A stretch of 64,000 bases of DNA, from the NCBI GenBank assembly GCA_004431415.1, contig QPMI01000692.1:62001-126000 (forward strand), given 5' to 3'. Numbering within the stretch: position 1 is the first letter of the stretch; each line of letters starts with the position of its first letter. The translations under genes and the position numbers were made by a program. This DNA is from Cyanophora paradoxa CCMP329 (taxonomy: Eukaryota; Plantae; Glaucophyta). Below, piece after piece: positions 2,489-64,000 of this stretch. The notes beneath the pieces were generated by a model. It did no database searches, was not told the DNA's origin, and worked only from the letters and a program-made list of their open reading frames with translations.

Positions 2489-2490
2489 TC

Positions 2491-3347: not shown

Positions 3348-3378
3348 ATATTTAATACGTTGCCCAATTGTAGGGTCG

Positions 3379-4351: not shown

Positions 4352-4520
4352 CGGAAAGTATCCATACGATGCAAAAAATGATTGATTTTTTACCTCCCTT
4401 TTTATTCCCCGTATCGGTCAAAAAAGCACTTAAAGAATTGGCGACAAGGGTATGAAAAGGAAAATTTGGTAGATTGCGCCGAAATTATTTTCTCCGGTTA
4501 TTTTAAAAGAACTAATAGAG

Positions 4521-8405: not shown

Positions 8406-8423
8406 ACAGGTTTAATTAGAAGA

Positions 8424-9806: not shown

Positions 9807-9845
9807 CAAACCCCGAAATTATTTTCTCCGGTAAATATAAAAGAG

Positions 9846-10160
9846 ATGGAGGGTGAAAAGCATTTCGTGGATATTCCGTATGATAAAAAAGACGTTGCGA
9901 AATCCCTCGGTGGAAAGTGGGATCGTGAGAATTCATGCTGGTATGTCACGAAAAAAGATCACTCTCTATGCTCTCAGTTCAAAACTCTAAGCTATGAGCA
10001 AGTGTATCAAAGAAACGTGAAGGTTTACCTCGATATTCCTTATGAATTTAAGGATCAAGCGAAGGCTGAGAAAGCCCGCTGGGATCCCGTTATGAAATCC
10101 TGGTATGTCATGGGTCTCGATCACCCGCTAATGGGCAAGTTTCCGATCAAGGAGCATTAA
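9846..10160 (+). CDS. Tandem DUF5710-like repeat protein
   Basis: Two copies of (F/Y)xDIPYxxKDxAKxxxxxWDxxxxxWYV. Confidence 0.8.
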   Translation: MEGEKHFVDIPYDKKDVAKSLGGKWDRENSCWYVTKKDHSLCSQFKTLSYEQVYQRNVKVYLDIPYEFKDQAKAEKARWDPVMKSWYVMGLDHPLMGKFPIKEH

Positions 10161-11178: not shown

Positions 11179-14100
11179 AACAAGATCCGTGCTCCTGCGG
11201 AGCACTAAGTACGGCGAAGCCTCGCGGACGCCCTCGCAGCTGTCACAGTAGGCCTACAGGGCACCCACCGACTGCCAGGCTGGCCAGCGGCCTGGCCGAT
11301 CGCGAACAGCTTTCTGGCTGGAAGCTGGCTGGCTGACGGCCAGTCCAGCTAGCGCTGGCCGGCTAGAGGAATATTAATGTACTGAGGAAATAAAGGGTGG
11401 AGCAGATTGAGAGGAGATTAATTATATAATATTGTTGGGAAGGAGGCCCGGGAGGAGCGAAGTTCCCGCGGCCAGGCGCATGCACATGCGTAGAGCTTGC
11501 GAATCTCTTAGAATGCATATGCTATCAATGTGGAGGGCTGCGGAGGCGAGGGCGCACGGAAATATGTGCAGGCCTGTGCAGGATCGAAAATTTGGCGTCG
11601 GCTGGGTTCTTGTGCTCTTTCGCCCCCAGAGAGCTTGCGCAAAGCTTGGAAAAGCTCTCAAATGAATACTGTACGGATGGGCATGCGTGAGGATGCGATG
11701 GGCATTCGAAGCTTGTGGAAGGCTTTTAAAACATCTCTGATGAATATTGTAGCGATGCCCGTGCGTGAGGATGCGAGGGCGCGCGGAAAGATGTGCAGGT
11801 CTGTCCAGGATCGAATTTTCGGGGTCGGCTGGGTCCCCGCGGCCCGGCGCATCCGTAAAGCGTGCGGAAGGCTTCTTCTACATCTCAAATGCTTATGCTA
11901 TTGTTCCGCGCATGCACCGCGGCGTGGGCGCGCGGAAAGATGTCCGGGCCCGTGCAGGATCGAATTTTTGCCGCCGGCTGGGTTCTCGTGCTCTTTCGCG
12001 TCTTCGAAGCTTGTGGAAGGCTTTGATAAAATCCCAAATGAATATAGTAGCGATGTGCTTGCGTGAGGATGCGAGGGCGCGCGGAAAGACGTGCAGGTCC
12101 GTGAAGGATCGTATTTTCGGGGTCGGCTGGGTCCTCGCGGCCCGGCGCATCCGTAAACCGTGCGGAATGCTTTGTCTACATCTCAAATGCTTATGCTATT
12201 GTTCCGCGCATGCGCCGCGGCGTGGGCGCGCGGAAAGATATCCGGGTCCGTGCAGGATCGAATTTTTGCCGTCCGCTGGGTTCTCGTGCTCTTTCGCGTC
12301 TTCGAAGCTTGTGGAAGGCTTTGATAAAATCTCAAATGAATATTGTAGCGATGCGCATGCGCGAGAATGCGAGGGCGCGCGGAAAGATGTTCAGGTCCGT
12401 CCAGGATCGAATTTTCGGGGTCGGCTGGGTCCTCGCGGCCTGGTGCATTTAGAGACCGTGCGGAAGTCTTCTTCTACATCTTAAATGCTTATGCTATCGT
12501 TCCGCGCGTGCGCCGCGGCGTGGGCGCGCGGAAAGATGTCCGGGCCCGTGTGGGATCGAATTTTTGCCGTCGGGTACCTTCCTGCGCTGTTCCGGCTCCG
12601 AAAAGCGGATTTCGGGGGTGCGCAGGCCGTGCTATGTCTATACGCGCCAGTACGCGTCGATTGCGCGCGTCGCGGGACCGGCCGGAACCGGGAGGATCAA
12701 ATTTCGGCGTACTGTTCGGACTGCAGCGTCGAGGGCGCCCGAAATCGAGCTTGCGGCGATGCGCTCGCCCTCGCCCGTCATTCTGTATCGTTCTGGGGCG
12801 TCCCTGGCGCGATTTCGTTGCGGGACCGGGTCCCACCTTCTGACTCGGACTGCATTTGTCGGAGGTTAAGTACCGGAATTGATCCAGAGGGAAATTCGAT
12901 TTTCGCGCGACGCCCACGGGGGAGCGGTCGTCTTAGGGGAGCCAGGACGCTAAAAATGGATCTAGAGAGGTCTGTGGGGGTTCGGGTGGCTGAGTGACTA
13001 GCGGCAATCGTGTCCGTGTCGAGGCAGAATTAATAATTCTGTCTCGAGGGAGTGCGACACGGAAATTATTCGGCAGGGGGGATCTCGAGTGGAAAAAAAG
13101 GTTAAAAAAGGAATTTGGATCGGCGGTTTTTGGTTTTGAGACAAGATCCGTGCTCCTGCGGAGCACTAAGTACGGCGAAGCCTCGCGGACGCCCTCATGG
13201 CTGTCACACTAGGCCTAGCGCACCGGCCAGCGGCCGGCCCGGCCGGGCCGATCGTGAACAGCGCTGGCCCGGGCCGGGAAGCTGGCGGCCAGCTGCAGCC
13301 CCACTTGTACTGGCCCGGCCAGCTAGAGGAATATGAAGGGGAGGGGTACCGGTTGGACTGGCTTTTAACTGGTGGAGCAGATTGAGAGCTCGAGGAGATT
13401 AATTATAAAATATTGTTGGGAGGGAGGCCCGGGAGGGGCGAGGTTCTCGTGGCCAGGCGCATGCACAGAGCTTGGGAATCGCTTAAACAGAACCTAGAAT
13501 GCATATAGCATCGATGTGCAGGGGTGCGGAGGCAAGGGCACGCGGAAAGCTGTGCAGGCCTGGCCAGGATCGAATTTTAATTTCGGGGTCGGCTGGATTG
13601 CCACGCCCTGTCGCGCCCGCAGAGCTTGCGAAAAGCTTTCAAAAGATCTCTGATAAATATTGTAGCGTTTTCCATACATGAGGACGCGAGGGCGCGCGGA
13701 AAGCTGTGCAGGACCGTCCAGGATCGAATTTTCGGGGTCGGCTGGGTCCCCGCGGCCCGGCGCATCCGTAAAGCGTGCGGAAGGCTTCTTCTACATCTCA
13801 AATGCTTATGCTATTGTTCCGCGCATGCACCGCGGCGTGGGCGCGCGGAAAGATGTCCGGGCCCGTGCAGGATCGAATTTTTGCCGCCGGCTGGGTTCTC
13901 GTGCTCTTTCGCGTCTTCGAAGCTTGTGGAAGGCTTTGATAAAATCCCAAATGAATATAGTAGCGATGTGCTTGCGTGAGGATGCGAGGGCGCGCGGAAA
14001 GACGTGCAGGTCCGTGAAGGATCGTATTTTCGGGTCGGCTGGGTCCTCGCGGCCCGGCGCATCCGTAAACCGTGCGGAATGCTTTGTCTACATCTCAAAT

Positions 14101-16738
14101 GCTTATGCTATTGTTCCGCGCATGCGCCGCGGCGTGGGCGCGCGGAAAGATATCCGGGTCCGTGCAGGATCGAATTTTTGCCGTCCGCTGGGTTCTCGTG
14201 CTCTTTCGCGTCTTCGAAGCTTGTGGAAGGCTTTGATAAAATCTCAAATGAATATTGTAGCGATGCGCATGCGCGAGAATGCGAGGGCGCGCGGAAAGAT
14301 GTTCAGGTCCGTCCAGGATCGAATTTTCGGGGTCGGCTGGGTCCTCGCGGCCTGGTGCATTTAGAGACCGTGCGGAAGTCTTCTTCTACATCTTAAATGC
14401 TTATGCTATCGTTCCGCGCGTGCGCCGCGGCGTGGGCGCGCGGAAAGATGTCCGGGCCCGTGTGGGATCGAATTTTTGCCGTCGGGTACCTTCCTGCGCT
14501 GTTCCGGCTCCGAAAAGCGGATTTCGGGGGTGCGCAGGCCGTGCTATGTCTATACGCGCCAGTACGCGTCGATTGCGCGCGTCGCGGGACCGGCCGGAAC
14601 CGGGAGGATCAAATTTCGGCGTACTGTTCGGACTGCAGCGTCGAGGGCGCCCGAAATCGAGCTTGCGGCGATGCGCTCGCCCTCGCCCGTCATTCTGTAT
14701 CGTTCTGGGGCGTCCCTGGCGCGATTTCGTTGCGGGACCGGGTCCCACCTTCTGACTCGGACTGCATTTGTCGGAGGTTAAGTACCGGAATTGATCCAGA
14801 GGGAAATTCGATTTTCGCGCGACGCCCACGGGGGAGCGGTCGTCTTAGGGGAGCCAGGACGCTAAAAATGGATCTAGAGAGGTCTGTGGGGGTTCGGGTG
14901 GCTGAGTGACTAGCGGCAATCGTGTCCGTGTCGAGGCAGAATTAATAATTCTGTCTCGAGGGAGTGCGACACGGAAATTATTCGGCAGGGGGGATCTCGA
15001 GTGGAAAAAAAGGTTAAAAAAGGAATTTGGATCGGCGGTTTTTGGTTTTGAGACAAGATCCGTGCTCCTGCGGAGCACTAAGTACGGCGAAGCCTCGCGG
15101 ACGCCCTCATGGCTGTCACACTAGGCCTAGCGCACCGGCCAGCGGCCGGCCCGGCCGGGCCGATCGTGAACAGCGCTGGCCCGGGCCGGGAAGCTGGCGG
15201 CCAGCTGCAGCCCCACTTGTACTGGCCCGGCCAGCTAGAGGAATATGAAGGGGAGGGGTACCGTTTGGACTGGCTTTTAACTGGTGGAGCAGATTGAGAG
15301 CTCGAGGAGATTAATTATAAAATATTGTTGGGAGGGAGGCCCGGGAGGGGCGAGGTTCTCGTGGCCAGGCGCATGCACAGAGCTTGGGAATCGCTTAAAC
15401 AGAACCTAGAATGCATATAGCATCGATGTGCAGGGGTGCGGAGGCAAGGGCACGCGGAAAGCTGTGCAGGCCTGGCCAGGATCGAATTTTAATTTCGGGG
15501 TCGGCTGGATTGCCACGCCCTGTCGCGCCCGCAGAGCTTGCGAAAAGCTTTCAAAAGATCTCTGATAAATATTGTAGCGTTTTCCATACATGAGGACGCG
15601 AGGGCGCGCGGAAAGCTGTGCAGGACCGTCCAGGATCGAATCTTCGGGGTCGGCTGGGTTCTCGCGGCCCGGCACATCTGTAAAGCGTGCGGAACGCTTG
15701 ATCTACATCTTAGATGCTTATGCTATTGTTCTGCGCATCCGCCGCGGCGTGGGCGCGCGGAAAGATGTCCGGGTCCGTGCAGGATCGAATTTTTGCCGTC
15801 GGCTGGGTTCTCGTGCTCTTTCGCGTCTTCGAAGCTTGTGGAAGGCTTTGATAAAATCTCAAATGAATACTGTAGCGATGCGCATGCGCAAGGATGCGAG
15901 GGGGCGCGGAAAGATGTTCAGGTTTCTAGCTATAGAGGATCGAATTTTCGGGGTCGGCTGGGTCCCCGCGGCCCGGCGCACGTGCAAAGCGTGCGGGGTG
16001 CTTCTTCTACATCTCAAATGCTTATGCTATCGTTCCGCGCATGCGCCGCGGCGTCGGCGCGCGGAAAGATGTCCGGGCCCGTGCAGGATCGAATTTTCGC
16101 CGTCGGGTACCTTCCTGCGCTATTCCGGCTCCGAAAAGCGGATATTTGGATTGCGCAGGATCTGCTATGTCTATGCGCGCCAGTACGCATCGATTGCGCG
16201 CGTCGCGGGACCGGCCGGAACCGGCCGGATCAAATTTTCGGCCTACTGTTCGGACTGCAGCGTCGAGGGCGCCCGAAATCGAGCTTGCGGCGATGCGCTC
16301 GCCCTCGCGCGTCATTCTGTATCGTTCTGGAGCGTCCCTGGCGCGATTCCGTCGCGGGACCGGGCGGGACCGGGTCGACGTCCCACCTTCTGATTCGGAC
16401 TGCGTTTGTCGGAGGTTAAGTACCGGAATTGATCCAGAGGGAAATTCGATTTTCGCGCGACGCCCACGGGAGAGCGGTCTTCTTAGGGGAGCCAGGACGC
16501 TAAGAATGGATCTAGAGAGGTTTGTGGGGGTTCGGGGAGCTGTGTGATTTGTGTGTGATGGGGGAAGCGTCACGTCCGTGTCGAGGAAAAATTATTAATT
16601 TTTCACGAGGAGGCTGCACAGGGAAATTATTTACAGGGGAGATGAAAAGTTTCGGGTTCGAATCCGACCGGAATTTGGCTCGTTGTTGACCGGGTTTGAG
16701 AAAGAGGCTTCGCCTGAAAGAGGCTTCGCCTGATAAAA
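11179..16738 (-). mobile_element. Non-autonomous Helentron/HINE-like element, triplicated, with ~150-bp central tandem repeats
   Basis: Asymmetric subterminal IR GGCGAAGCCTC (11213) / GAGGCTTCGCC (16704, 16720). Hairpin GTGCTCC-TGC-GGAGCAC (11189-11205). Terminal CTTGTT on minus strand with T/A-rich flanks. Units start at 11180, 13141, 15053. Confidence 0.7.
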
Positions 16739-16937: not shown

Positions 16938-17747
16938 TTATTTTTCACCAAGTTCATAGTTAGTCATAATGAGATGGTTTCTTTTCTTTTTTGTCATACC
17001 ATACACTTTGCCATACGTATGGCGAATATAGGGTTTAAATAGGAGTTTCATTAAAAGAGCATCATTTACAACCATCATAACCTTGCATTTCGCTGTCTTA
17101 AATAGGTCTTCCAAATCCAAAAAGAAGGTTTCTAAATCGAATTCTACATTTTCGTAAAAGTCATTATTGCTGTTTACGTATGGAGGATCGAGAAATATAA
17201 AAGCCGCTTCATCATCTCTATATTTGGCTACGATATCGCGAAAATCCCCATGGGATAGGCTGGCTTCTTTTATGAAATCATCGTAAGGTATCTTCTTTTT
17301 AAGAGTTGTATATGGACTCACCTTCACGTTTCGTTTTTTGAAATCACGGAGGGTTTTAACATTTAAAACGCTGTTTTTAAGAAGATAGAAATGGTGAGCC
17401 AAGTAATCCATTGCATCTTTACGATCATGTTGTAGAAACTTCTTATAGACTTCTTTATGCTCTTCTATATTGCTAACTGCTTCGAACTGTTTAAGACTCT
17501 CTAAGAGTTTAACTTTATTGTCTGGGTCTTTCATTGTATTCAAAAAAAGGGTATGGGTTTCGTCGTTATCATTCATATAATAATTAAACCGGTCTTTATG
17601 CTTTTCCCAAAGATAGAAACTACAAGCACCTGAACCACAAAACGGTTCTATAACTTTATTAATTCCTTCTAAATCGATATATGGATAGATCGTATCCATT
17701 TCATTATACTTGTTGCCGGTATATTTATGGTAAAAGTGAGTCTTCAT
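16938..17747 (-). CDS. Dam/D12-class N6-adenine DNA methyltransferase
   Basis: YTGNKY, EPFCGSGA (motif I), MND, FIFLDPPY (motif IV). Intronless, AT-rich. Confidence 0.92.
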   Translation of the reverse strand: MKTHFYHKYTGNKYNEMDTIYPYIDLEGINKVIEPFCGSGACSFYLWEKHKDRFNYYMNDNDETHTLFLNTMKDPDNKVKLLESLKQFEAVSNIEEHKEVYKKFLQHDRKDAMDYLAHHFYLLKNSVLNVKTLRDFKKRNVKVSPYTTLKKKIPYDDFIKEASLSHGDFRDIVAKYRDDEAAFIFLDPPYVNSNNDFYENVEFDLETFFLDLEDLFKTAKCKVMMVVNDALLMKLLFKPYIRHTYGKVYGMTKKKRNHLIMTNYELGEK

Positions 17748-49700: not shown

Positions 49701-51280
49701 GTACTAGGCCGCAAACTAAGTCATTAAGGGCCAGCTCACCTCTTCAGCAACAGCGGCAAGCTCGGAGCACGAGCGAGATCTCCGGAGCGACGAGAGGCAA
49801 TCTCCGGCGGGCAATGGGGCGGTGCTCCGCTAATAAGGGACGAGATGTCGCACGCTAGATGCCGCGCGGCGCCGCCGCTGCCAGGCTGATCAGCCGTCCA
49901 GATCTCCCGCGCGTGCGGCGGCAACTCGCCTTTTGCCGCGTACCCACCTGGAGGCTGGAGCATGCAAGAAAATAACCGCCGATATAATGAAAAACCCAAA
50001 TCCAAGATCATGATTCCATCAAGAAAGCACGTGCTCTGACAGCCTCTGAGCACTGCTCTCGCGCCGAATGGATCCCTCAATCGCGTCACCGTTGGATTGA
50101 GGGCCCGAATAGGCTGCAGCTTGCTGCGGCAGGCTGCGCGCGCGTGCATCCAAATTCCTGCAATTTCGAAATTCGAATTCGCGATCGACGTCACGCGCGA
50201 ACTCGCCGCGAAATCGCGATCGCCGGCGGATTCGCCGCGAACTTGCAATTGCGACTCTCGGAAGTTTGCCATTGTTAAATTGTGCTTAACTTACAAATAA
50301 CTTACAATGATACGTTTTTCCAAGTTGCCGTGAACTCGCGAGACGCTAACGGATTCGAAAAGAAAGCTCCCCGAGGCTGTGAGCCTGTAATCATTGAATG
50401 TCTGTACATCATTCACAGTACATGTACATGTGAGTCTGATGTGACTCCTGTCACGAGTCCTGTGAGCCTGTGAGGCTGTACCGGTACATGTGAGCCTGCA
50501 TGTGAGTATGTGACCCGGGTGAGTCCCGAGTCCGGGCCCCGGGGCCTCGAGCTCCGGCCCCCGGAGTCCGGACTCCGGAGTCCGGCCCTCCGCCGGGCCA
50601 GCGCAAGCTCCGGGTTCGATGCGGCCGGAGGGCGGTCCGGAGGCCCGCCGGACCCGGGCGGGGGATCGATATCTGTACTGCTTCCCGGAGGAGCTCGAGA
50701 TCGATATCCCGGGCCCTTCCCGGCCCCTCCGGCCCAGGCTCCGATCGCGAGTCCGGGCCTCCGGCCCAGGCTCCGGCCCTCCGTTGCATACTGGAGAGCC
50801 AGAAATATTCAGTGGGCTGCATATTTATAGTTCTAAATTAAACGTTTTTGGGCCACCTACTAAACATTTCTCGCCTTCTAAAGCCGAGAATTTAATTTGT
50901 AGGGGAAGCCCCGTCTCCGCCATACAAAAGCCGGCGCCCTGCGAAGTGGCAGTTTTCTACTTATTTTCCTGTACCACATTAACCAGTTCTAGATCTACAG
51001 TATGCAGTGCCATCACTGCCATGCACAGGGCTAGGTGCACGTGGCGCGGGGCATTATATTGGGGGGCTCTAAGTTCTAGCCTAGTAGCTGCAAGCTGATA
51101 TGGGGATTCGCAGAAGGATCCGGACAAGCGGGAGGTCCACAGGGGGACAGCCGGCAGGGGGAGGCCGGGGCCAGAGCGGGATCTAGATCTGGAGCGGGGG
51201 CGGGAGCGGCGCCGGCGGGGGCGTACGCGTCGGCGATTACTCGTGGATTTATAATTAGTAAGGTGGCGCCAGCTGCAGGG

Positions 51281-51560
51281 CCGGCGGCGCGCGAGGGCGT
51301 TATAATTAGGGGCGGGGCCGGGGCCGGGGGCGGGGCGGCCGGCCGCGTTGTCCCGGCGGCGCGCGAGGGCGTTATAATTAGGGGCGGGGCCGGGGCCGGG
51401 GCGGGGCGGCCGGCCGCGTTGTCCCGGCGGCGCGCGAGGGCGTTATAATTAGGGGCGGGGCCGGGGCCGGGGGCGGGGCGGCCGCCGCGTTGTCCCGGCG
51501 GCGCGCGAGGGCGTTATAATTAGGGGCGGGGCCGGGGCCGGGGGCGGGGCGGGGCGGCCG
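51281..51560. repeat. 71-72-bp tandem repeat (4 copies) with TTATAATTA core and GGGGCGGGG boxes
   Basis: Units start at 51281, 51353, 51424, 51495. Confidence 0.9.
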
Positions 51561-53073
51561 GGCAAGGGCGGCGGTGTCTACGTATACGTGGCGAGCCTCG
51601 GAGCGGCGGCGGCGGCCAAGCGCGGCGCCGGCGGCTGCGGGGACTACGTATACGATCGCGAGGTCCCGGGCCGGGTGCGCCCAGTTTATAATTAAGTCCG
51701 ATCCGGCGGCCGCATCTCGCTGGGTAGGCGGGCGGGTCCGCGGATGCGAGCTAGTGTACGTATACGAAGACTCTCATAGTATAGCTAGTCAGAGTAAGTC
51801 AGAGTATAATTAATATTAAGGCAGCTAGCTATAGGATCCCAAAGCTTAAGGGCTCGGCCAGGGCGATAGATCTAGATCTAGAGAGAAGGCCAGCGAGAAG
51901 CAGGACCGGAGAAAATGGGACGCACCCCCCGGGGCGAGGCTGGCCACCGTCGGGAGGAGGGCGAGGAAAAGAAAAGAGAACAATTGCAAAACAAGCGGAG
52001 AGATTAGGCCGAGGGCCCGGCCCGGGGTTCGGCGGATGGCACGTCGTTCGAACGCCGTCCACCCGCGCGCGCGCGCCTCGCAGTGAATGAGTGGTAATTT
52101 GGGAACTGCGGGGCGGGCGTGATCATGATCATGAGGCCCGGGCAGGTGACGCGAAAGACGCGCAATGCGGGGTGATGTCCCTTTGCTCGACCGTAAAAAA
52201 CAACGTTGACCTTGAATTGACTTTGTGATCATGAGATCATGATCAATCGTTTCGATATCGATATCGTGTAGCTGCCCCGGACCGCCCCGCGACTCGGCGA
52301 GCTCGAGGTGGCGCACTACGACATCAATCCCCAGAGCCCCGTGGCAGCCGCCGACATCGCCTTTGCAATTGGGATCCTTTTTCACGCCACGGTTTCGCGC
52401 TGGTTTGAATTTCGGGGGCACATGTACATGTACAGCGCTAGTGCGCGCCGCCTTTCAGCCGGCAAGGGCCGGGCCCCGCGAGCAACGCCGCCGCCACGAG
52501 CAGGGGCCGCGGCCACGAGCAGGGGCCGCGGCCGGGGATGCTGGGGGGGGGGGGGGGAATACATGCCCCGACTTGCAATATTAATTGAGATCTGAGCTAT
52601 AGACGCCGACAGACTGAAAGCTTACCTTAGTAAAGTTTGCAATTGCGCACGGAGTCTCAGGGGCTCCCCGGAGTCTCAGAGTCGTGCGCGCGCGAGAGAG
52701 GTCCGACATGTACTAGTGTACACTGTGACAGCCGTTGCTCAGCGGCTGGCCATGGCGTCGATCGCGTCGCGCCGCCGCCGTCGACGTTGTTGGCTATAAT
52801 TAATAAACGGTCGGCCGGCGCCGTACGCGTACGCGCGCCTGCCACTAGTACTAGCTAGCGCTGTATATACGTGGGCCTTTGTGAAGCGTTGAGCTCTCGA
52901 GCTTGCCCCTTCGCTGTCAATGCATTGTTAACCCTCGGAGGTTGCATGAGTCACGCGTCGCGGAGGTTTGGGTGTTATATTGCGATCAGGTACACGCTGC
53001 ACTAACAGGGGGGCTAGCACTAACCGACGCGGGGAGTAACAGCCGGTGTACCCCTCGGGGGGCCTCCCGGCCT

Positions 53074-53856
53074 CTAACGATGCTCAGGCTCTAACTGAAT
53101 GCTGTACCCCCCGCTGTTACTGCCCGAACCTTCCGAACTTGCGTAATTCGGCCTCGCCCTGTACCCAGTGGCTGGTGTCGTCCATCCATTCGCGTACCTC
53201 CCTCTGACGCTTGAGTGACTCACGCTGCTCGGGGGTAGGGGAGGGGGGGCCTTCGAGGCGGGGTGGGAAGGGGGTACGGTGGCAAAATTCAGCCACTCGG
53301 GGGGTATGCCGAATTCGCCGTGAACGATCCTCTGCGGTGTGAAATACCGGTCGCTGCTCACGGCCAAGTGGAAGAACGCGCTCCTGAGCCCGGAGAGGAA
53401 GCGTGGTTGCATGAATGGCTGCTGGAGGGACTCGTCGCGCCAGGGGGCTACGAAATCAATGATACGCTGCTGTACCTGCGCGGGCAGGGCAAGGATCTGG
53501 CTCTTGCGGTTCGCAAAGGCCGTCCACAGCGCTTGCAGGTCGGCCCAATCGCCGTTCAGATCCCTGCGTTCGCGCCTCAGGTACGATCTCGGGTTCTCTG
53601 TCATACCCATCAAGCCCGCGGCCCTGATCATCTCCCTGTCCGGGAGCTCTCGCTCGTCGTGGAATTCGTCTCTAATCCAGCGCACAAGGTAGAGCACGCG
53701 CTCCATGAAGTTCTCCGCCGGCGAGCCGCCCCCTGAGGACGTGCGCCTCCCCTCCAGCACTGCGTTCGCATCCTCCAAGTCCACGTTCCGCTGTCGAATC
53801 TCCCCGTCCAGGTCGCCGTTGTTGTACAGCACGTCGGACTCGCGTGTTCGCGCCAT
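53074..53856 (-). CDS. Hypothetical protein, paralog of adjacent gene, F-box-like LP..VQ..I motif
   Basis: ADLQALWTAFANRKSQILALPAQVQQRIIDF. Confidence 0.6.
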   Translation of the reverse strand: MARTRESDVLYNNGDLDGEIRQRNVDLEDANAVLEGRRTSSGGGSPAENFMERVLYLVRWIRDEFHDERELPDREMIRAAGLMGMTENPRSYLRRERRDLNGDWADLQALWTAFANRKSQILALPAQVQQRIIDFVAPWRDESLQQPFMQPRFLSGLRSAFFHLAVSSDRYFTPQRIVHGEFGIPPEWLNFATVPPSHPASKAPPPLPPSSVSHSSVRGRYANGWTTPATGYRARPNYASSEGSGSNSGGYSIQLEPEHR

Positions 53857-53890
53857 GCTCGCGGCTCGGTGAGAATTTATACCTGTACCC

Positions 53891-54619
53891 CTACTCGCGG
53901 TCGGGGTATCGAGGGCCTGGCAGCCTCGCGCGCTTCCGCAGCTCGGCCTCGTCTGGCGACCAGCTCGTCGGATCATTGCTGTACTCCATCCACCTGCGAA
54001 TCTGACCCTCCCGCAGTATCTCTTGGCGCTGCTCCGCCGTGGGCGCCGGTGGGCCGTACGGTGGGCCGGCAGGCGTCAGTTTTCTATACTTGTATCTCTT
54101 GAACCGTTCTTCCATATTGTCTTGTTCTTCGTCCCATCCTTCAGGGATCAAATCCGATGGGGGACATAGGGTACCACCCATTCATCTTCCTTGTTTTTGG
54201 CGTGGTGAACGAAGCCTTGGAAGTAGTGCTTCAAAATATTGAGCGGGCGATTGATGATCTCCGTGCGAGTGCCCGCATTCAGGAAGAGATCCAGTATAAC
54301 TCTCTGAACGTCTTGGGGCAGGTAGGTCATGGGGCTCTTGCGCGAGCCGAACGCCCACCAGAGCTTGCGAAGTTCATCGCGAACCCTGCCCATGTCGTCC
54401 CTGTGTTCGATTTCGTACACCGGCGGCTCATACGTTCGGATGTCTACCCTGGACCGAGGCCTCTGCGTGCCACATCGCGCAAATACGTCGCAGCCATGCC
54501 CCGTCTCGCATTGTATTGGGGATCTCTTCTTTCACCCAGCCGATCAGCCCGTTTACCTGCTTAGTGTAATCTCGGATGTACCCCGATAGCGGTGGGAGGG
54601 TAGTCTGATTATCAGACAT
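53891..54619 (-). pseudogene. Hypothetical protein (two frameshifts), paralog of 53074-53856
   Basis: Three adjoining ORF pieces. DELRKLWWAFGSRKSPMTYLPQDVQRVILDL. Confidence 0.55.
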
Positions 54620-54669
54620 ATGCATTCGCACACATCAAGAAATTCTAAACGCTACTGCGAGGCTAAGCT

Positions 54670-55334
54670 ATGCATACCGATACAGATTGCGAGACTTGCG
54701 AGAACTTACAACAGGGGAGCGCGGCGTGGCACGCGGCGCGCCGTGAAAAACTAACTGCATCTAATTTTGCGGCTGCGTGCGGTATAAACCCTGGAAATCC
54801 AGGGCCCGCCTGTGGGCGGAGCTAAGCGGGATAGCGGAGGAAAACAACTTTGACAACCCTGCCCTAACCTACGGGCATGACTATGAGCCCTTCGCGGTCT
54901 CTCTCTACAAAACGTTGAACAATAACGTGGACGTGCAACATACTGGATTGCACGAACATAAGGAACTGCCCTTCCTGGCGGGGAGCCCGGACGGGCTAAT
55001 CGGAAACGATCGCATACTCGAAATAAAATGTCCGTACAAACAAGAACTCTACGACAAGGTTCCTACCTATTACATGACGCAGCTGCAAGGACTTTTAGAC
55101 ATAACGGGCCGCGAGTGGGCCGAACTTTTTTGCTTCACGCCTCTGCGCGTGCGAACGTGGTACGTCAGACGGGACGAGAGGTACATTCAGCTCATGCGGC
55201 GGTGCTTACATCTATTTTGGTCGCACGTGAAGGCTGGAACTCCGCCCGAGCCCTACAGCGATCGAATGAAGTCAGAGAACCTCAGCGAGGAGCAGGCGGC
55301 GCTGCGCGAGTTTAAGTTGTACGCCCTCCTCTAG
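54670..55334 (+). CDS. YqaJ-like viral recombinase / lambda-type exonuclease (1-nt frameshift near 54790)
   Basis: QGSAAWHAARREKLTASNF, YGHDYEP, FLAGSPDGLI, LEIKCPY, YYMTQLQGLL. Confidence 0.92.
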
Positions 55335-55566
55335 TGTCTCGACCCTCTCAGATATTAATTTAAAGATCTGGGAGGGTCGGGACACGTCTCTTGGTCAGAC
55401 TACTTATGTACGCCCTCCTCTAGTGTCTCGACCCTCTCAGATATTAATTTAAAGATCTGGGAGGGTCGGGACACGTCTCTTGGTCAGACTACTTATGTAC
55501 GCCTCCCTCCTCTAGTGTCCGGACCTTTCCAATAATCTATAAAGAAAGTAGGGAGGGTCCGGACAC
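55334..55566 (+). repeat. Three tandem copies (~89-bp period) of a 52-bp palindrome with AT-rich core
   Basis: GTGTCTCGACCCTCTCAGAT-ATTAATTTAAAG-ATCTGGGAGGGTCGGGACAC at 55334 and 55423; divergent copy at 55515. Confidence 0.93.
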
Positions 55567-55861
55567 GTCTCTTGGTCGGACTCACCGTAGCTTGGTGTAG
55601 CTCAGGCCCAGGCGGGGAAGGCGAGTCTGCAATGAATCAGACCCCACAGGATTTGGTTGAGCTGCTCTTTGCAGGGGGGCAGGAAGGCGGCCGCAGAGGG
55701 CTAGGGAGACTAGATCTAATTAGTAATCCCACACCGCGCATGTGCAAGCGACAGAGAACGAAGTGAGTAAATGCAGATCGATGATACGGCAATCATGAGT
55801 TGTTCAGAAAAGGTCGGGACACATAGAGAGTGCATGCCCTCACTCTCGTCCGCCCTCGCAA

Positions 55862-55911
55862 TGTCCCGACCCTCCCAGATCTTTAAATTAATATCTCAAA
55901 AGGTCGAGACA
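55862..55911 (-). repeat. Inverted copy of the same palindrome
   Basis: TGTCCCGACCCTCCCAGAT-CTTTAAATTAAT-ATCTCAAAAGGTCGAGACA. Confidence 0.92.
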
Positions 55912-56012
55912 TTCATTGATCATATGCATGACGTCACTTGAATTCGCACGTTCGTATTTACACACTGGCACGCGCATCCCGTTCGCGAAGTCCACACTGT
56001 GACATCCGACAA

Positions 56013-59000
56013 TCACACGCGCCTGTGAATGAGAGCATAGCAGTCGGAGAAAACGTTGTAAACCTCTGGGAAGCTTGGCGCCATGCCTGCCCTTGCCTGC
56101 TTAGCCTGGCGCTCTACTGCGTCGTCGAGCATGTCTTCCTCCCACGTGATGTAGCGTCGCTTTCGGCTGCCCATTTGCCCTCCGTCCGCGTCGGAGAAAG
56201 CGCGTCTCACTCCGAGGTACTTCTCCAGCAGGTACTTGATGACTTGCCAAGACTGCTGCGAGAGCCGCTTCTTCTCACCGTCCGCTGCATCGAAGCGGGG
56301 CGCGCGCTCGTCCAGACTCTGCAGAGCCGCGTACGCCTCCCGACCTCCGGCGACGCCAGGGCCGCGTAGGCTTCGTCCGACCACAGAGCACGCCCCGCGA
56401 GCTTTCCATACCCCGCCAGCCGAAGAGTTTCTTGAACAGCGCGACGACCTTCGATACCTTGAGGCGCTCAGCAGTAGGCACGATCTCGGCAACGTCCGCG
56501 CCATGCTTCAGCACCAGCGTGACCACGGCAGTGAGCGGGATGGAGTAGAACGAATCCACATCCAGGCGACGTCTCCTTCGGTCAGCTCGCTCGGATCCTT
56601 GGCCAGGAACGCGGCGATCGACGTGCGAGCAAGCGAAGCAACCTTCTCGATGTCCAGCTTAGCGAGAGACTCGCGGACTGCCTCCAGGCCAGCACCGTGC
56701 TCCACAGATCGACGGGCTCCAGCGCGCCCGCCTCCAGCACGCTCCTGATCTCGCGCAGCCGCTGCTCCTTCTCCTGCTTCGGTCCGCTCGGGTTTTGATC
56801 CTCCGTGACTTGCACGTTCATCAGCGCGCAGGTCGACATCAGCCGCAGGCGCGCTGCCACTGCGAGGCGCCGAGTGGGCATGCCGGCGCGGCGGCTCCCG
56901 CGGTGGCTAGCCTTCAGGTCCAGGTAGCGCTGCATGTCGTCCGAGCTCTCGTCGTCGTCGCTCTCACGCCAGTGCGCAGCGCCGCGCCGACCGCAACCGA
57001 GGGCGTCCGGTTCTTGCGCACGGCGACGAGCAGGTGCTCCCCGTCGGGCGTGCTGCGTTTGCGCAGCCTTCTGACTCGAAACAGCAGCTGCACGATGTCG
57101 TCCGCCTCCAGCTGCGCGGGCTCTGCCTGGAACACGCCGTAGACCTTGTCAAAGTGCGCGTCCGAAAAGTCCACGCCTGCCCGAGCGCGGAAGTTGCGAT
57201 GAGCACGTCGCAGGCCTTGTACGCGCCCTCCTCAGACACATCGATCGACACGATGCGCACTGGGCCGTCGTTCGTGAAGCGCACGCTCTTCTCCTTGGCC
57301 TGCCCAACGATGAGCCCGATCGTGAACGGTGCGCCGCTGCCGTCCTCGGGCCCTGCCTCGAGCTGAGTCACGTACTGAGCGCCGCCAGGCTGAGCTGCTC
57401 CAGCGCCTGCTTCGCAATCTTCTCCTGCATCTCGATCGCCTTGGCCGGCGTCTCTGCAATGATCATCGCCCGGCAGCGCCCGGTCTGCACAGCGCCATGA
57501 TGTCCGCCTCGACGTGCGCCGGGCTGTCTGACACGCGCATCTTCCAGTCGCAGGTGCGATGCGAGTTGTACAGGAGCCCCAGGCGCGCCCCGACCTCCTG
57601 CGCCGACTCTGCCAGGTACGCGAGATCGACCGACCGAACGAAGCCGTCCATCGCCACGATGCGCGATGCCTTCATCACGCCGCGCCATAGGCCCACGCAG
57701 CGCGCGTTTCGAGGCACTGACCGCATACCTAGGTGCAGGCCGGTGGGCTCGAGGGTGCCGCTCGAGGTGAGGTGCTTCGTGAGGGAGGAGAGCTCGTCCA
57801 GCACGACCAGTAGCGGCGCCGTCGACCAGCCCTCCCAGTCCTCGAGCACCTTGTGCAGCGAGTCCATGTGATGACGACGCACCTGCACTCCTCATGGCGG
57901 AAGCCCACTTGCCATGCGATCCCTTTGAGCTCTCCGGTGGCTTCTTGATGTCCATGTAAAGCACGGCGTCCTTTGACAACTCCGCAGCATCAATGCGACG
58001 CTTGAGGTCGCGGGAGAAGGCCCGGCGGCAAGTCACGAGGATCACTCGCCAGCCGCCTGCAAGGGCCGGGTCCAGGTACGCATCGATCAGCGCCTGCGTC
58101 TTCCCGTGTTGAGTCCGAGCAGATGACGTCGACCTGCGGCTGAGCGGATCTCGGGTTCTGCTCCAGCGCCCCGAATGCGGAGGTAAGGATCTTGCACGAG
58201 AGGTGGCGTTCATCCACTGCATTGACGCAAGCCTCCAGGCCCGTCGACTCGAGCGCGATCAGGAGGGAGGGGAGGGCAATGTCGAAGGCGACAGGCTGCG
58301 AGGGATCGGTCACATAGCGGGTCTGTGCCACGCTGCCCGACTCCCTCCGGTCCCTCCCCTCGAGCTCGACTTCAATACCGTGCGCCTGGATGGAGATTCG
58401 AGCCGCCGGCGCCCCCGGCTGACTCCCGCCCAGGACGAGGGTGATGGACCCGTCGGGCTCGACTCCAAGGTGCTGAACGCGGCGGGCGTCGTGCAGGCCA
58501 AGGTCCGCGCGCAGCTCTGCCCCGCCTTCCAGATCTCGTCCTCACCGCCTTGTTCTTGCGCAGGCGGTCCAGGAGCCGCTCCAAGGCCGGCAGGCTTGGG
58601 CTCGAATCCAGGAGAGCGCCCGGCTCCGGGATGGGCTTAGCGCGGGGCGCCGAGCTTCTGGATGGAGTGGGGAGGAGCTCCGCTCGCGGCCCGGGCGCCG
58701 GCCCCGCAGAACGTAGCCCCCGTGCATCCACACCGAGCTCCAGGCCGCTCGAGCTCCCAAAGAACCATGCATGAGATCGCAAGCCTCCGGGCTCTGTAGG
58801 ACGTAGGCAGCCTTGAATCCATTATCCAAGGGGCGAGAGAAAGTGAAGCCTCCGAACTTGGTTGCAAAGGCGCAGGCTGCCGCGGTGCTCGTCTCATCCT
58901 CGGCACCCGAGAAGTGGCTGGGGGTGATGCAGGGCGGGTGGAAGACGCAGAAAGCCGTCCCCAGGGTCGGGCTGCAGGCCTTCTGGACTTCGACGAGAGG

Positions 59001-59113
59001 GAATCGAACGAAAAAGCTGCACTCCTGCTCGCTCAGATCTATCTGCTGTACCCCGGGCCGGGCATACGGGCCAGGAAGGCGTCGACGTCGAGAGACACGC
59101 GTCCGGTTGCCAT
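56013..59113 (-). pseudogene. Herpes UL9/NCLDV-type replication origin-binding protein (SF2 helicase), multiple frameshifts
   Basis: Ordered motifs across frames: VICSD..TGKT, VILVTCRRAFS, MDSLHKV, LVVLDELSSLTKHL, RIVAMDG, VLIATSALG-xG-VDF, IVQLLFRVRRL. Start codon uncertain. Confidence 0.82.
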
Positions 59114-59203
59114 GGTCGTCTCTCTATAGCTAGGCTTGGAAAATTCTAGATCTACTAGGCTAGTCAACGTCTGTTGGCTAGCTATAGTCGACGTCTGGAC
59201 TGC

Positions 59204-59340
59204 TGTCTCGACCTTCTGAGATATTAATTTAAAGATCTGGGAGGGTCGGGACAGGCTCTGGTCCGTCTGGATCCGGACTGCTCAGCGGCTGTCTCGACCT
59301 TCTGAGATATTAATTTAAAGATCTGGGAGGGTCGGGACAG
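59204..59340 (+). repeat. Two further copies of the palindrome (86-bp period) upstream of the helicase
   Basis: TGTCTCGACCTTCTGAGAT-ATTAATTTAAAG-ATCTGGGAGGGTCGGGACAG at 59204 and 59290. Confidence 0.93.
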
Positions 59341-60263
59341 GCTTTGGTCCGACCTTAAGCGCTCAACTAGACCCGGTTGACACCGTCTTGATCTCTCCTT
59401 CTTGGCGCAGCGGACGATGTGACGCGCAGACCGTCGGCCCGGCGGACGGGGAGGCGCGCGCGTAGAACTTCGGAAGCGCTAGCCCTTGCTTGACCGAAGC
59501 TTAGAAAGTTTTGAGCGCACGTGAATGCGACACGTGTAGAGAGAAGGCAGAGCGCGCCGGAGCTAGCTTGCGCGGCCGAGCGCTCGACCGCCTTTGCTCC
59601 TAAGCTCAGAAAGTTTTGGGCTCACGCGGTTGCTCCACGTGTTTCGACTCAAAACACAGTACCCCAACCCGAAAAAAAGCGCCCGGGCAGCGCATCTCGC
59701 AGCGCCCGGGCCCAGCGCTCCTTGCAGCACTTGCCAGAGGCACTAGCTTGCATTCCGCTCAGCCCGGAGAGCCGCCGCCTCGCTCCTTTCGATTCGGAGG
59801 TGCGCCTCACTTCGCAACCTCTTTCTCCGCACCACGGCTAGCTCCGGACCTCAGATTTTGGGCGCTGGAAAGCTCTCTCGACGCCGCACTCACGCCGCCA
59901 CGCGCAGGGTCGCTCGCGCCGGCCGCGGACCTTCGAAAGCTCGATGGCGCCCGAGCCGGAGCACTCCGCCGCATCCCGCAGGTGCCAGCTCGCTCTCTTG
60001 CCGCTCTATCCCTTGCATTTAGCACCTAGAACATGCCCGCAACCTCGCGCTCGATTCGCCCGCGTCCGCTGACATTTGGTCTCTGAGCAGGTGCCGAGAT
60101 TGGCCGCCGCGCCTTCCGCAACTCGAGCCGACGTTCGCGGCGACTTGCGCACGCTTCTAGATCTCGTTCTCAAGCCCGCGCATCGATTCGGCGGCTCCGG
60201 CTCGCCTCCCCGCGCCTCCAGCCCCGCGCCCCACACCCGTTCTTGTCCTAGCTAAGCCCTCCC

Positions 60264-61576
60264 TTGTCCGCGGCCAGTCGCGGGCTACGCGCATCGCGGA
60301 TAGCATCAGTGGAGCTACGTTTCAGCGCTGGACGCAGGCCCGCCGCCAATCCCTCCCACCTCCCGCTCGCAGCACGCTCACTGGGCCGCAGGCAGCTTCG
60401 CGGGGAGCCGCTGGATTCGAAGCCGCGCACCTTCCCCGCCCGTCCCGACGTCGTACGCGCTAACGTCGCCCGCGCCGCAGGTGGCCGCCAGGCCTCCTGC
60501 ATCCAGGCCTTCGAGCCGGCGTGGCTGCGGGCGCAGCGCCTCGGCTTCTGGCAGGAGACGGCCTCCTGTCCCTCACCCGCTTCATCATCGCCCACTGCGC
60601 CGTCGACCCACCACCTACGTCGCCGCCCGAACACGGAGGGCTACATGACGAGCGTCGCGGGCATCGTCGAGTACATCGCGCGCACGGAGGGCCCCGACAC
60701 CTCGCCGCCGTCGGCGCCGACATCGAGAACGGCCGGCTGGACGAGACCCTCGCCGGCTTCGGCTCCTGGTGCCGCCCTACTCCTACAAGCTCGGCGGCGT
60801 CTGGCAGACCTACATCCGCGGCATCGTCCCCAAGGCCCGCTCTCCCTCGGCGAGAGCCAGCCGGCGCTGGAGGCGATCGCGATCCCCGTCGCCCAGTTCA
60901 AGGACCCGGTGGCCGACGTCGGGCCTTCCTCGTCAAGCCCCACACAAGGGCAAGGGCAAGCGCACCCGCAACTCGGCGCCGGCCTTCCTCCCGCCCAGCC
61001 CCCGCCACTGCCCCCAGCAGCGCCCCGGCCAGCAGCGCATCGACGAGATGCTGCCGCGCCAGGTCCGGCCCGCGTACCCCCGCTTTCCTCCCGTACCCCC
61101 CTCCCCCGCCCCCTCCTGATCCAAGGGCAGGGTACCTCCGCCTCCCCGCGAGCGCCGACGGCCCAGCCCCCTCCCGGCCCGGCGCCGTCCTCACCGCGAT
61201 CCAGGGCTTCGGGGCCCAGCAGGAGGCCGAGCGGCGGGCGCTGGCGGCGCGCCAGGCGCGCGAGGCGGAGGAGCGGCGCCAGGCCCTCTGGCCCAGCGCC
61301 TGCAGGCCACCATCGCCTTCCGCGCCGAGCTGGACTCCGGCTTCCGCGCCGGCCAGATCGCCGGGGCGGAGGCTCGGAGCGCTGGCGGGCGTTCGAGGCG
61401 GAGTCGGCGGGGCTGGCGAAGGGCCTCGGCTACAGCTACCGGCGCGTGCCCGTGCTCAAGGACTACGCGTCGGCCGCGGCGCGGAGGCCTCGCGGGCGGA
61501 GATCGACGCGGCGGAGGAGCAGGCGGCGCGCGAGGAGGCCGAGGACAACGCGCGCTTCCGGCACCTGCACCACTGA
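60264..61576 (+). pseudogene. One or two hypothetical viral proteins, heavily frameshifted
   Basis: Coding-like segments switch frames (EGYMTSVAGIVEYIA, PYSYKLGGVWQTYIRG, GYSYRRVPVLKDY). Confidence 0.45.
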
Positions 61577-61624
61577 GGCCCCGAGGCGGTATTTTTCTCA
61601 ACCCTCCCTCAATTCGGTCCCGCG

Positions 61625-61873
61625 ATGGCCTTCGAAGCTTATCCTGCCCACTACTCGCTAGAGCGCTGGCCGCGACCTCACCTGGCTCCTCGGCGGCACC
61701 CCACGGCCTCGGCGGTCATAGGCGTGGGCTTCGGCTACGCCGCCAAGTCCCTCTACGCCCCGGCGGCGCCTCGCAGGCGGCGGCCGGCATGCGCCCCGCC
61801 GGGCGCTAACTTTTCAAAGTTCATTCTCCCCTCCCCTTTTCCGAGTTCCGAGTCCGTTGGCGTTCCCTTTTAA
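61625..61873 (+). CDS. Small hypothetical protein with hydrophobic segment
   Basis: ASAVIGVGFGYAAKSLY; intronless. Confidence 0.4.
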   Translation: MAFEAYPAHYSLERWPRPHLAPRRHPTASAVIGVGFGYAAKSLYAPAAPRRRRPACAPPGANFSKFILPSPFPSSESVGVPF

Positions 61874-61903
61874 ATTTTCTTCATTCTCGTTACACGTTCG
61901 AAG

Positions 61904-62380
61904 ATGTCGAGCGCGGTAGAGAAGCTGCTGTGCACCGTGTTCAAATCGGATTCGCGATGCAGCAAGATCGGCGAGGCGGCGAGGGCTAAGGGCGGGGCGG
62001 CGGCGGAGGGGCCCAGGGTGAAGGCGGCGGATCCCGCGCCGCCGTCGCTGAAAACGATCAAGGGGGCGGGCAAGGGCAGGAGCGTGGGGGCGCTGCCCTC
62101 GTGGCGATCGCGCCGGGCAGAGGGAGGCGGCGCACGCGGCGACGGCGGCGCTGGCCGCGCGGCGGCAGGCGGAGGCCTACCCGTGCCTGGGCCGGGGGCT
62201 GCACCCGCCGGCCGGCCGCCCTACGCCGTGAGCGCCTACTTCGACGAGGCCAACCGGCTGAGCTGCCAGGAGCTGTGCGACAACCGCATGCGGCGCGCCG
62301 TGGACGGGCACCTGCCGCTGCTGGTGGCGCTGGGCGGCTCGCTCCTGATGGTCTGGTACCTGCGCGGCCTGGTCATTTAG
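61904..62380 (+). CDS. Small protein(s) with C-terminal transmembrane helix
   Basis: LPLLVALGGSLLMVWYLRGLVI at the C-terminus. Confidence 0.55.
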   Translation: MSSAVEKLLCTVFKSDSRCSKIGEAARAKGGAAAEGPRVKAADPAPPSLKTIKGAGKGRSVGALPSWRSRRAEGGGARGDGGAGRAAAGGGLPVPGPGAAPAGRPPYAVSAYFDEANRLSCQELCDNRMRRAVDGHLPLLVALGGSLLMVWYLRGLVI

Positions 62381-62406
62381 ATAGTTTTTCGAAGTCTAGG
62401 TCAAAG

Positions 62407-62807
62407 ATGGGCTGGGTGGACGCCGTGCTGACCAAGGTCTTCGGACCGAAGAGCGCGCAGCCGCCGCCGAGCTTCAACCTGGCCGCGGCGATCAGCACGA
62501 CGATCGAGCGCAAGAACAACGAGCTCATCCTAAAGAACGACGGCAAGCTTCCCTGGGCCGACGTGGCCGCGGGCGCACTCGGCAGCACGCTGACGGGAAT
62601 CGATCGGACGGGCGCCGCGGCGTGAAGGTCGGGCAGGCGGTTGCGGCCGTGCCGGAGCTTGCGATGAAGGGCTGGCACTACGCCAAGATCGCCGCCGGCG
62701 TCGCCGCCGTGCTCCTTGCGATCTGGCTCGCGTGGCAGCTGCGCGGCGCCTACCAGGGCGCGCGCCTGCAGAGCGCCCAGCTCGACTATTTTCTAAAGGC
62801 TAGGTAA
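62407..62807 (+). CDS. Putative N-myristoylated membrane protein (one frameshift ~62620)
   Basis: MGWVDAVL... joined to ...IAAGVAAVLLAIWLAWQL. Confidence 0.55.
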
Positions 62808-62819
62808 AGCGAGCGAACC

Positions 62820-63193
62820 ATGCGCGGCGGCTCTTCCCCCCGTGTTTCCTTCGCTGAGAACCCGGTGGCGAACGCAGTCGCCCCTACCCCCCTGGAGCCC
62901 GGAGTGAAGCTGGAGCGTGCGAACGCAGTCTCCACCAAGAAGGCCAAGCGCGCGCTGGCGCTGGAGGTCCCGGTCGCGGAGGATACGGAGAAGGTTGCAT
63001 TCAACAAGCGCAAGACGTACAAGGCGATACGCGAGGGACAGCTGCTGCCACGGACTCGGTTCCCGGGCTGCCGGGCACCACGGCCGGCGAGCTCCTAGTG
63101 CGCAACCTGCGCCTGCAGTACGTCTCCCGCCTCCGCCGCTCCAAGGCCAAGAAGGCGCGCCTGGACTCGGGCGATAGCAGCTCTAGCTCGTAG
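62820..63193 (+). CDS. Small basic hypothetical protein (frameshift ~63050)
   Basis: K/R-rich ORF continuing in another frame to LVRNLRLQYVSRLRRSK. Confidence 0.45.
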
Positions 63194-63549
63194 GGCTCTG
63201 TACTGTTGTATTCAATGCCTTTACCAGTTCCTGTTCCTATCCAGAGCACGACTCGGGTGAAGGGCACGGTCATAGCGAACATGAACTCGGCGAACTTTGC
63301 AAAGTTCATCAGGGTTCCCAGGCGGGGATCCTCCAGTAGATCGCCTCGCGCAGCGCCTCGTAGACGCGCATGAGGGAGCGCTCGTTCTCCGTCGCGAAGG
63401 CGTCGCCGGGCTCGTCGGGGTCGGGATCCGTGAGCTCGGAGTACTCGTCCGAGCTGCCCGCGCTCTCGGCACTGCGGCGGGGTCGGGCGAGGGTCGGGCA
63501 TTCTTTGCTGGTAGAAGGGTTAGAAGAGGGACCAGAAAATCACTAGCAA

Positions 63550-63890
63550 TCACGGGCGCCGGAACTCCATCGAGTCGCCGCGCCAGTACTTGTTGCCGGA
63601 GGCGAGCAGCTTCATCGGCTCGCCCGTCGAATCGTGCTTCCAGGCCTCGCCGTCCCAGAGGGCCGTGCCGCCGTCCTCTAGCTTGAGGCGGTGGCCCGGC
63701 TCGAGCCGGTTGCCGTCGAGCATGCGGCCGGCCATGAGCGCCAGGTCCCACTCGGTGAGGTTGCGCTGCTCTGCGGGGGTGAGGCCGCGCTCGACGCGCT
63801 CGGGCTGGCGCGCCTCGCGCTCATGCGGCTGAGGCCCACCAGGAAGAAGATGGGCAGCGCAAAGGCCATGAGATCTAGCAGGGCCTCCAT
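63550..63890 (-). CDS. Small hypothetical protein with N-terminal hydrophobic anchor (frameshifted)
   Basis: LLDLMAFALPIFFLVGL then EWDLALMAGRMLDG..LWDGEAWKHD. Confidence 0.45.
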
Positions 63891-64000
63891 TGAGGAGGGA
63901 CTTAGAAAAGGTTCCGGACCAGGCCCGAGAGCTGCGGGCCCAGGCGCCGGGCGGCGTAGTAGAGCGCGGCCGCCGCCGCGCAAGGATCAGAAGGCGCGGC

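Follow-up and report, generated by a model that had tools for sequence, protein, structure and literature searches.

The right-hand part of a 64,000-nucleotide stretch of Cyanophora paradoxa CCMP329 DNA (assembly GCA_004431415.1, contig QPMI01000692.1, positions 62,001 to 126,000; hereafter the window) raises the question of what kind of replicon combines a UL9-type helicase gene, palindromes on both sides of it and a neighbouring lambda-type exonuclease gene. The first-pass annotation of the sequence had proposed a new endogenous DNA virus or plasmid-like replicon that begins near position 52,900 and follows the initiation and recombination logic of herpesviruses. The reading favoured here, to which we assign a probability of roughly 0.6, is that this stretch is the left terminal part of an element present in multiple copies in the glaucophyte alga, likely an endogenous small nuclear DNA virus without a family B DNA polymerase (PolB), in which a palindrome-bounded cassette encoding a UL9-type superfamily 2 (SF2) helicase has likely displaced most of a superfamily 3 (SF3)-type gene. 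The order of its parts is YqaJ exonuclease, palindromes, UL9-type helicase, palindromes, spacer, the tail of the SF3-type gene and membrane protein genes.

The left boundary of the element lies at approximately 52862..52891, where a short-read contig of single-copy depth (95) from sequencing run X14 terminates at 52891 and the binned depth in the same run increases from ~245 to ~9,500 in the next bin (~40-fold), in agreement with the previously proposed start. The lower coordinate, 52862, presumes 31-base words, and the exact terminus has the comparison of short-read contigs and depth as its single basis. The depth remains high as far as position 64000, and the element continues beyond the window. 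Relative to the single-copy flanks in runs X14 and X5, contig depth is 37–43-fold for the helicase and 63–76-fold for the downstream genes; these values are rough, as depth is no copy number, and suggest tens of element copies. All named close paralogs of the element genes are EukProt models of Cyanophora paradoxa, with 14 gene ids for YqaJ and the helicase named on 19 contigs, and 48–73 % of the sampled words were present in 20 of 24 sequencing runs, all from one organism. Just left of the element, a 71-nt tandem array with the core TTATAATT occupies 51281-51560 inside a high-depth repeat.

The YqaJ gene (54670..55334, forward strand) extends from an ATG at 54670 to a stop codon at 55332-55334, and its frame 54765-55331 matches PF09588 with E 5.2e-20 (72.7 bits, cut-off 22), while a paralog scores above the cut-off of TIGR03033, which bears out the lambda-type exonuclease of the first-pass annotation. 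Near 54788 the window is one base short compared with the short-read contigs of all four runs. Six YqaJ paralogs are 95–99.5 % identical. In a quick tree of 95 rows, this YqaJ forms a clade of its own (Shimodaira–Hasegawa-like approximate likelihood ratio test (SH-aLRT) support of 99) with two metagenomic proteins, P0002 and P0004, which are 64 and 49 % identical to P0001 and derive from contigs shorter than 2 kb. Since both group with the YqaJ of the element, relatives exist beyond this culture. The clade falls outside that of the loci read as giant-virus contigs and is not joined to the gamadvirus-like clade. Related YqaJ genes were also observed in the virus-like loci L002, L008, L012 and L164-L180 (the last 46–58 % identical to the L008 protein), of which L008 carries an open reading frame (ORF) with an HUH motif. 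L002 and L012 continue into genes of eukaryotic appearance, which suggests that gamadvirus-like elements have integrated there; the gamadvirus-like label of all these loci is our own reading.

The helicase gene (56013..59113, reverse strand) could be read through with a codon model as ~1,035 codons across 13 frame changes. Its profile matches, the read-through and its paralogs identify the product as a UL9-type or CyRepA1-like SF2 helicase of ~1,035 aa, with an N-terminal region of ~330 aa to which no family was assigned. The UL9-like assignment made earlier depended on the Herpes_ori_bp family (PF02399), which scored above its cut-off of 20 bits for the piece containing Walker A (21.9 bits), for P0032 (29.7) and for P0045 (22.5), the alignment covering no more than the helicase motifs at the N-terminus (positions 47-161 of the 820 in the profile). 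The helicase paralogs contain GLNTGKT, VTCRRAF, VVLDE, AMDG, ATSALGAGVDF and QLLFRVR, which we take to be SF2 motifs. The best-scoring profile for all five helicase paralogs tested was that of CyRepA1 (NF042913; E 1e-15 to 3e-6), and on the same protein, P0045, it outperformed PF02399 (E 1.1e-15 versus 3.7e-5). The specifically herpes-type logic is therefore not upheld, whereas the broader proposal of a small, virus-like or plasmid-like replicon, devoid of PolB, equipped with its own palindromes and distinct from the Polinton replication module, is retained. The likeness to CyRepA1 is confined to the helicase motifs (44 % over 50 aa), the curated cut-off was missed (best score 57.6 versus 200 bits), and DUF3854 was not found in Pfam scans.

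The helicase had no close relative outside C. paradoxa in these profile and pattern searches. Helicase patterns, applied to candidate stretches from viruses (74) and prokaryotes (182), retrieved no relatives, a UL9-type ORF was absent from 161 loci (160 of them taken around YqaJ relatives), and PF02399 was absent from all 45 viral records. A search of representative sequences, using a profile of 548 positions without Walker A and B, yielded six matches, five of them from C. paradoxa; P0046, an insect repeat protein, was dropped as a false match. In the ESM Atlas, the helicase was associated at 0.95 with clusters bearing PF02399, mostly bacterial.

The helicase has imperfect palindromes of 50 nt on either side, six in all, which start at 55335, 55424, 55516, 55862 (inverted), 59204 and 59290, and as no other site in the 64 kb exceeds 27 of 50 matches to the unit, their description as specific to the element is borne out. 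On the left, p1 (55335-55384), p2 (55424-55473) and the variant p3 (55516-55565) are arranged in an 89-nt tandem unit (55335..55565, forward strand), p1 beginning one base past the YqaJ stop, and the inverted p4 (55862..55911, reverse strand) lies ~100 nt past the helicase stop, in the sense orientation of the helicase. On the right, p5 (59204-59253) and p6 (59290-59339) occupy 59204..59339 (forward strand) and form with p1 and p2 a 155-bp direct repeat, 83 % identical, that brackets the helicase. The favoured strand of each of four distinct palindrome copies folded with z-scores of -4.0 to -8.2, none of 200 shuffles being equally stable, and 94.7 % of the arm cells pair when G-T is counted; all three double-sided changes derive from p3, which, with five distinct sequences, constitutes weak covariation. 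The palindrome pattern had no matches in viral and metagenome contigs. A loose contig end of run X9 at 55582 reads into an apparent further palindrome variant, and the palindrome arrays may thus differ among copies.

Beyond the palindromes, a spacer without clear coding signal or Rfam match (59340..60490, no strand assigned), which the comparison of models shows to be common to the UL9-type copies and missing from the SF3-type gene models, is followed by the orphan 3' end, ~360 codons, of an SF3-type P-loop protein of ~1,500 aa (60490..61576, forward strand). A query from the ORF at 60.7-60.9 kb recovered 27 homologous gene models, all with EukProt names of one format. In nine of these (1,018–1,519 aa) a P-loop core with the Walker A sequence GQSGTGKS lies upstream of the part present here, and 12 contain SF3 sequence upstream of the junction, while residues 1-1150 of P0088 had no tblastn match anywhere in the window. 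The long proteins contain GQSGTGKS, ICMVMAE and VIVCN, which we read as Walker A, Walker B and motif C, and these motifs, together with a weak PHROG match, make the protein SF3/D5-like, an assignment that is weak by profile. None of the 12 SF3-type models shares its contig with a named UL9 gene or matches window positions 57300-60455; among the 15 other models, eight have a UL9 gene two to four gene numbers away (versus 0 of 12, Fisher p 0.003) and a further four match 57300-60455, three of the 27 models being untyped. The element therefore appears to exist in two forms, and in the copy studied here the palindrome-bounded UL9 cassette has likely replaced three quarters of the SF3 gene. By eye, a loose contig end of run X1 departs from the window at 60490 into the upstream codons of SF3. 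The surroundings of the two forms overlap: the SF3-type P0087 and the UL9-type P0077, P0080 and P0082 have 110 aa of the tail in common without a difference, genes G and J of the window also follow the SF3-type models P0065 and P0084, respectively, and in one SF3-type example the YqaJ gene g16152 lies two genes from the 1,506-aa SF3 model g16154.

Several observations weigh against this reading. The two-form typing draws on automatically predicted genes and their numbering, not on contig DNA, and because cluster listings give one name per sequence, SF3-type contigs could carry UL9 genes that the listings omit. Unlike X14 and X5, runs X9 and X1 show no helicase deficit in the ratio of helicase to downstream depth. 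Profile support for the long SF3 protein is weak, with phrog_1156 (primase-helicase) matching the P-loop core of P0086, one of six proteins, at E 0.007 and AAA_22 matching at E 0.002–0.005, and nothing was found in NCBIfam or the PDB; a pattern search of the helicase N-terminus revealed neither an archaeo-eukaryotic primase (AEP) nor an HUH motif. The label of virus is based on gene content, and the element is left without assignment to a family, since neither a capsid, a packaging ATPase or an integrase nor the right terminus was observed.

As previously stated, PolB, integrase and capsid families are not visible, being absent from 34 frames compared with Pfam and from subsets of these compared with PHROGs and NCBIfam. 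Scans of the visible 11 kb with the same three collections found no VLTF2, VLTF3 or RuvC, the visible part contains no core genes of nucleocytoplasmic large DNA viruses, and the Polinton pair of rve integrase and protein-primed PolB is absent from 52.9-64 kb, the remainder of the element lying outside the window. An HUH endonuclease was not found in the window. By eye, the pattern of residues ~270-350 of P0072, in the SF3 N-terminus, resembles that of a degenerate HUH or AEP palm, a likeness unconfirmed by a predicted fold (predicted local distance difference test of 35, no Foldseek match) or by BLAST against the HUH-motif ORF. SF3 patterns found no loci, and the SF3 protein matched none of nine gamadvirus-like records.

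The uniformity of the backbone contrasts with the divergence of the helicase, whose alleles are 99, 70–73, 62–67 and 40–47 % identical to P0060 beside YqaJ genes that are 95–99.5 % identical; for the 62–67 % allele, YqaJ is the numbered neighbour on two contigs. In all three models of the 70–73 % allele, the junction with the SF3 tail is positioned ~45 codons further downstream. Divergent alleles and two junctions fit a repeated exchange of modules within a uniform backbone, as judged from the gene models, although the second junction could alternatively result from a later deletion. The SF3 form is presumably ancestral, since the tail present here lacks the P-loop and the upstream domains. 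The swap may have arisen via recombination, probably more than once and possibly aided by YqaJ, which would act in recombination-dependent replication by resecting ends and could have promoted the exchange. The incoming SF2 helicase would bind the G+C-rich arms of a palindrome and then melt its A+T core, and the fork would be passed to the host nuclear primase and polymerase; the cassette would thus serve as a portable initiator-plus-origin module. These steps are modelled on what is established for UL9, plasmid Reps and lambda exonuclease. A more far-reaching proposal, possible but doubtful, is that the element constitutes a new lineage of glaucophyte DNA viruses in which a UL9/CyRepA-like initiator and its palindromic origins form an exchangeable cassette that has repeatedly invaded one backbone, each time deleting most of SF3, with several origin-initiator specificities coexisting and competing in a single host genome in the manner of plasmid incompatibility groups.

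The same arrangement may be explained differently if the palindrome-helicase-palindrome unit is a selfish mini-replicon parasitizing the virus, which moves via the 155-bp direct repeats and wrecks the SF3 gene, so that UL9-type copies need SF3-type helpers. The direct repeats do bracket the helicase, the inverted p4 could allow its inversion, divergent alleles and two junctions occur within a uniform backbone, and the top profile match is to a plasmid Rep family. The model P0034 fuses gene I and the helicase in one orientation, opposite to that of the window copy, but the prediction may have fused tandem copies into a chimera. However, simple insertion would leave the 5' part of SF3 nearby, and the window does not contain it; the cassette contains no recombinase, and the UL9-type copies are numerous and near-identical (the 99 % allele), which suggests that they replicate. 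We consider such a parasite unlikely. The palindromes themselves, in an element otherwise as described, might be RNA or single-strand hairpins that end transcripts instead of origins, as in the transcript-ending hairpins of mimivirus and Sputnik. The position of p1 right past the YqaJ stop and of p4 behind the helicase in sense orientation would suit this role, as would the outer-arm mismatches, which are T-G on one strand, the strand that folds better than its complement in four of four pairs. Yet p5 and p6 are located on the upstream side of the helicase, where no gene ends, no palindrome follows genes A, C or G–L, and tandem arrays with A+T cores are generally better suited to origins, making a role confined to transcript ends improbable.

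The stretch could also be a duplicated piece of a giant endogenous viral element (GEVE) or belong to an ordinary Polinton-like virus (PLV). GEVEs are reported from C. paradoxa (Sarre 2025), the assembly has 366 capsid hits of PLV type (Bellas 2023), and PF02399 has been found in PLV-type insertions, for example in 15 of 34 from streptophytes (Bulzu 2025, PMC12220804, Table S6), but the same catalogue gives PF02399 in none of 156 glaucophyte PLVs. The YqaJ clade (SH-aLRT 99) stands apart from the one with loci read as giant-virus contigs, and a layout that is uniform and dense, recurs in many copies and ends sharply would be unlike GEVE debris, so that this explanation seems very unlikely. We therefore retain the reading of a PolB-less multi-copy element with a displaced SF3-type gene. 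Sarre 2025 described methylated viral regions in C. paradoxa, and the example in its figure could be a copy of this element. A separate PLV, with a Pox_A32 ATPase, the end of a UvrD-like helicase and an rve integrase, occupies window positions 1-9806, and its capsid matches, by eye, C. paradoxa capsids in Table S2 of Bellas 2023. Within 1-10000, CTAG was observed once versus 38 expected. To the right of this PLV lie three blocks of a 149/298-nt tandem repeat (11705-16106) and an A+T-rich, intron-free gene for a D12 adenine methyltransferase (16938-17747, reverse strand; PF02086, E 4e-16), probably of viral origin.

The remaining genes of the element contribute little to its classification. Gene A (53074..53856, reverse strand) is a paralog of gene C, as judged from BLAST-type identity to the gene C frames (30.6 % over 98 aa, E 2e-6; 41 % over 39 aa, E 7e-5); it had no family in Pfam, PHROGs and NCBIfam scans, and the ESM Atlas yielded nothing at 0.77. 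Gene C (53891..54625, reverse strand) is likely a single gene broken by two frameshifts, according to the codon-model read-through and its paralogy with gene A. The F-box-like appearance of both genes is a resemblance that found no support in Pfam, and a likeness of gene C to Mriya_1 was dropped, its score having been reached by 8 of 500 shuffles with a four-sequence profile and by 85 of 500 with an 18-sequence profile. Downstream of the SF3 tail, gene G (61625..61830, forward strand, end approximate) is likely to encode a small membrane protein, judging by hydrophobicity, and is followed on the same strand by gene H (61904..62380; an ORF of 158 aa with a C-terminal hydrophobic anchor), gene I (62407..62807; ~134 aa, a Met-Gly start, one hydrophobic segment and one frameshift) and the basic gene J (62820..63193). 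On the reverse strand, the codon model indicates gene K (63190..63520, limits approximate) and, together with the ORF, one or more genes L (63550..64000), which include a hydrophobic segment and run off the window. The most hydrophobic 19-mers score 2.15 in L, 1.84 in H, 1.79 in I, 1.45 in K and 1.06 in G; the clear segments in H, I and L agree with the small transmembrane proteins noted before.

Polishing of the frameshifts had been advised, and short-read contigs over the helicase, which average many copies, differ from the window by gaps and zero to two other letters, while the single-copy flank 50001-50830 shows no differences. As the published assembly is long-read based (PMC6704402), most of the frameshifts likely reflect misassembly of a repeat. 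Biological decay was set aside as less likely, given that long short-read contigs show gaps with zero to two other letters over the helicase.

Two points go beyond the first-pass annotation, namely that the element is multi-copy and that a UL9 cassette occupies the place of the greater part of a resident SF3 gene; the case for the latter is good but remains at the level of gene models. When DNA viruses replace replication genes, the event is normally deduced from distant genomes, and in mriyaviruses the interchangeability of SF2 and SF3 helicases was inferred from patterns of presence and absence (Yutin 2024, PMC11253617). Here both states appear to occur in near-identical copies within a single alga in culture, and their junctions can still be read, so that the direction of replacement, the breakpoints and the matching of origin and initiator are directly testable. 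The element would add a many-copy virus-like entity not shown in the glaucophyte PLV catalogue consulted and, for a lineage in which genetic tools are scarce, a candidate for a compact replicon made up of a helicase and palindromes.

Among known systems, the UL9, oriS and UL12 of herpes simplex virus share with the element an SF2 helicase of PF02399 type, palindromes with A+T cores and a lambda-type exonuclease; as the element contains no herpes polymerase, primase or capsid gene, the resemblance is one of analogy, not membership. CyRepA1 plasmid Reps resemble it in that a single Rep with a helicase domain supports an autonomous replicon (NF042913; PMC9978351 and PMC10079941), but the helicase of the element scores far below the cut-off and has no DUF3854 match. 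PLVs with PF02399 are likewise multi-copy and endogenous, and PF02399 has been tallied in PLV-type insertions of streptophytes and other hosts, the streptophyte set (PF02399 in 15 of 34) having no protein-primed PolB and a tyrosine recombinase in 22 (Bulzu 2025, PMC12220804, Table S6); they differ in that the 156 catalogued glaucophyte PLVs have no PF02399, and the PLV of the window differs from the element in G+C (about 46 %) and has no DNA in common with it. In the visible part of the element there was no PLV capsid, ATPase, integrase, recombinase or terminal inverted repeat.

A close parallel is offered by Mriyaviricetes (Yaraviridae and 'Gamadviridae'). As described in Yutin 2024 (PMC11253617 / 10.1101/2024.02.29.582850), mriyaviruses are 35–45 kb in length, lack PolB and encode a YqaJ-like nuclease together with a helicase that is either SF3 or UL9-like SF2, the two being mutually exclusive. 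A UL9-like helicase and a YqaJ-like nuclease without PolB are thus known in some mriyaviruses. The literature searched, which covers Sarre 2025 and Bellas 2023 in part, contained no account of the element or of the helicase swap. Compared with the loci that we read as gamadvirus-like, its YqaJ is 32–42 % identical and no other gene is similar; searches for Mriya_1, Mriya_48, Mriya_50 and Mriya_51, made with those loci and without reference proteins, gave no significant match. HUH, VLTF2, VLTF3, RuvC, capsid and ATPase genes were not seen in the visible part of the element, nor was an AEP motif found. Shared features are a YqaJ-like PDDEXK nuclease, one helicase of SF2 or SF3 type and never both whole, no PolB in the visible part, small membrane proteins and a long helicase with an extra N-terminal region (SF3_hel2 of PEV2 measures 4,562 nt, compared with 1,506–1,519 aa here). 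By analogy, and on partial gene content, the element probably works like a mriyavirus, being PolB-less with interchangeable SF2 and SF3 helicases, and differs from one in that both helicase types occur within a single near-identical population of one glaucophyte host.

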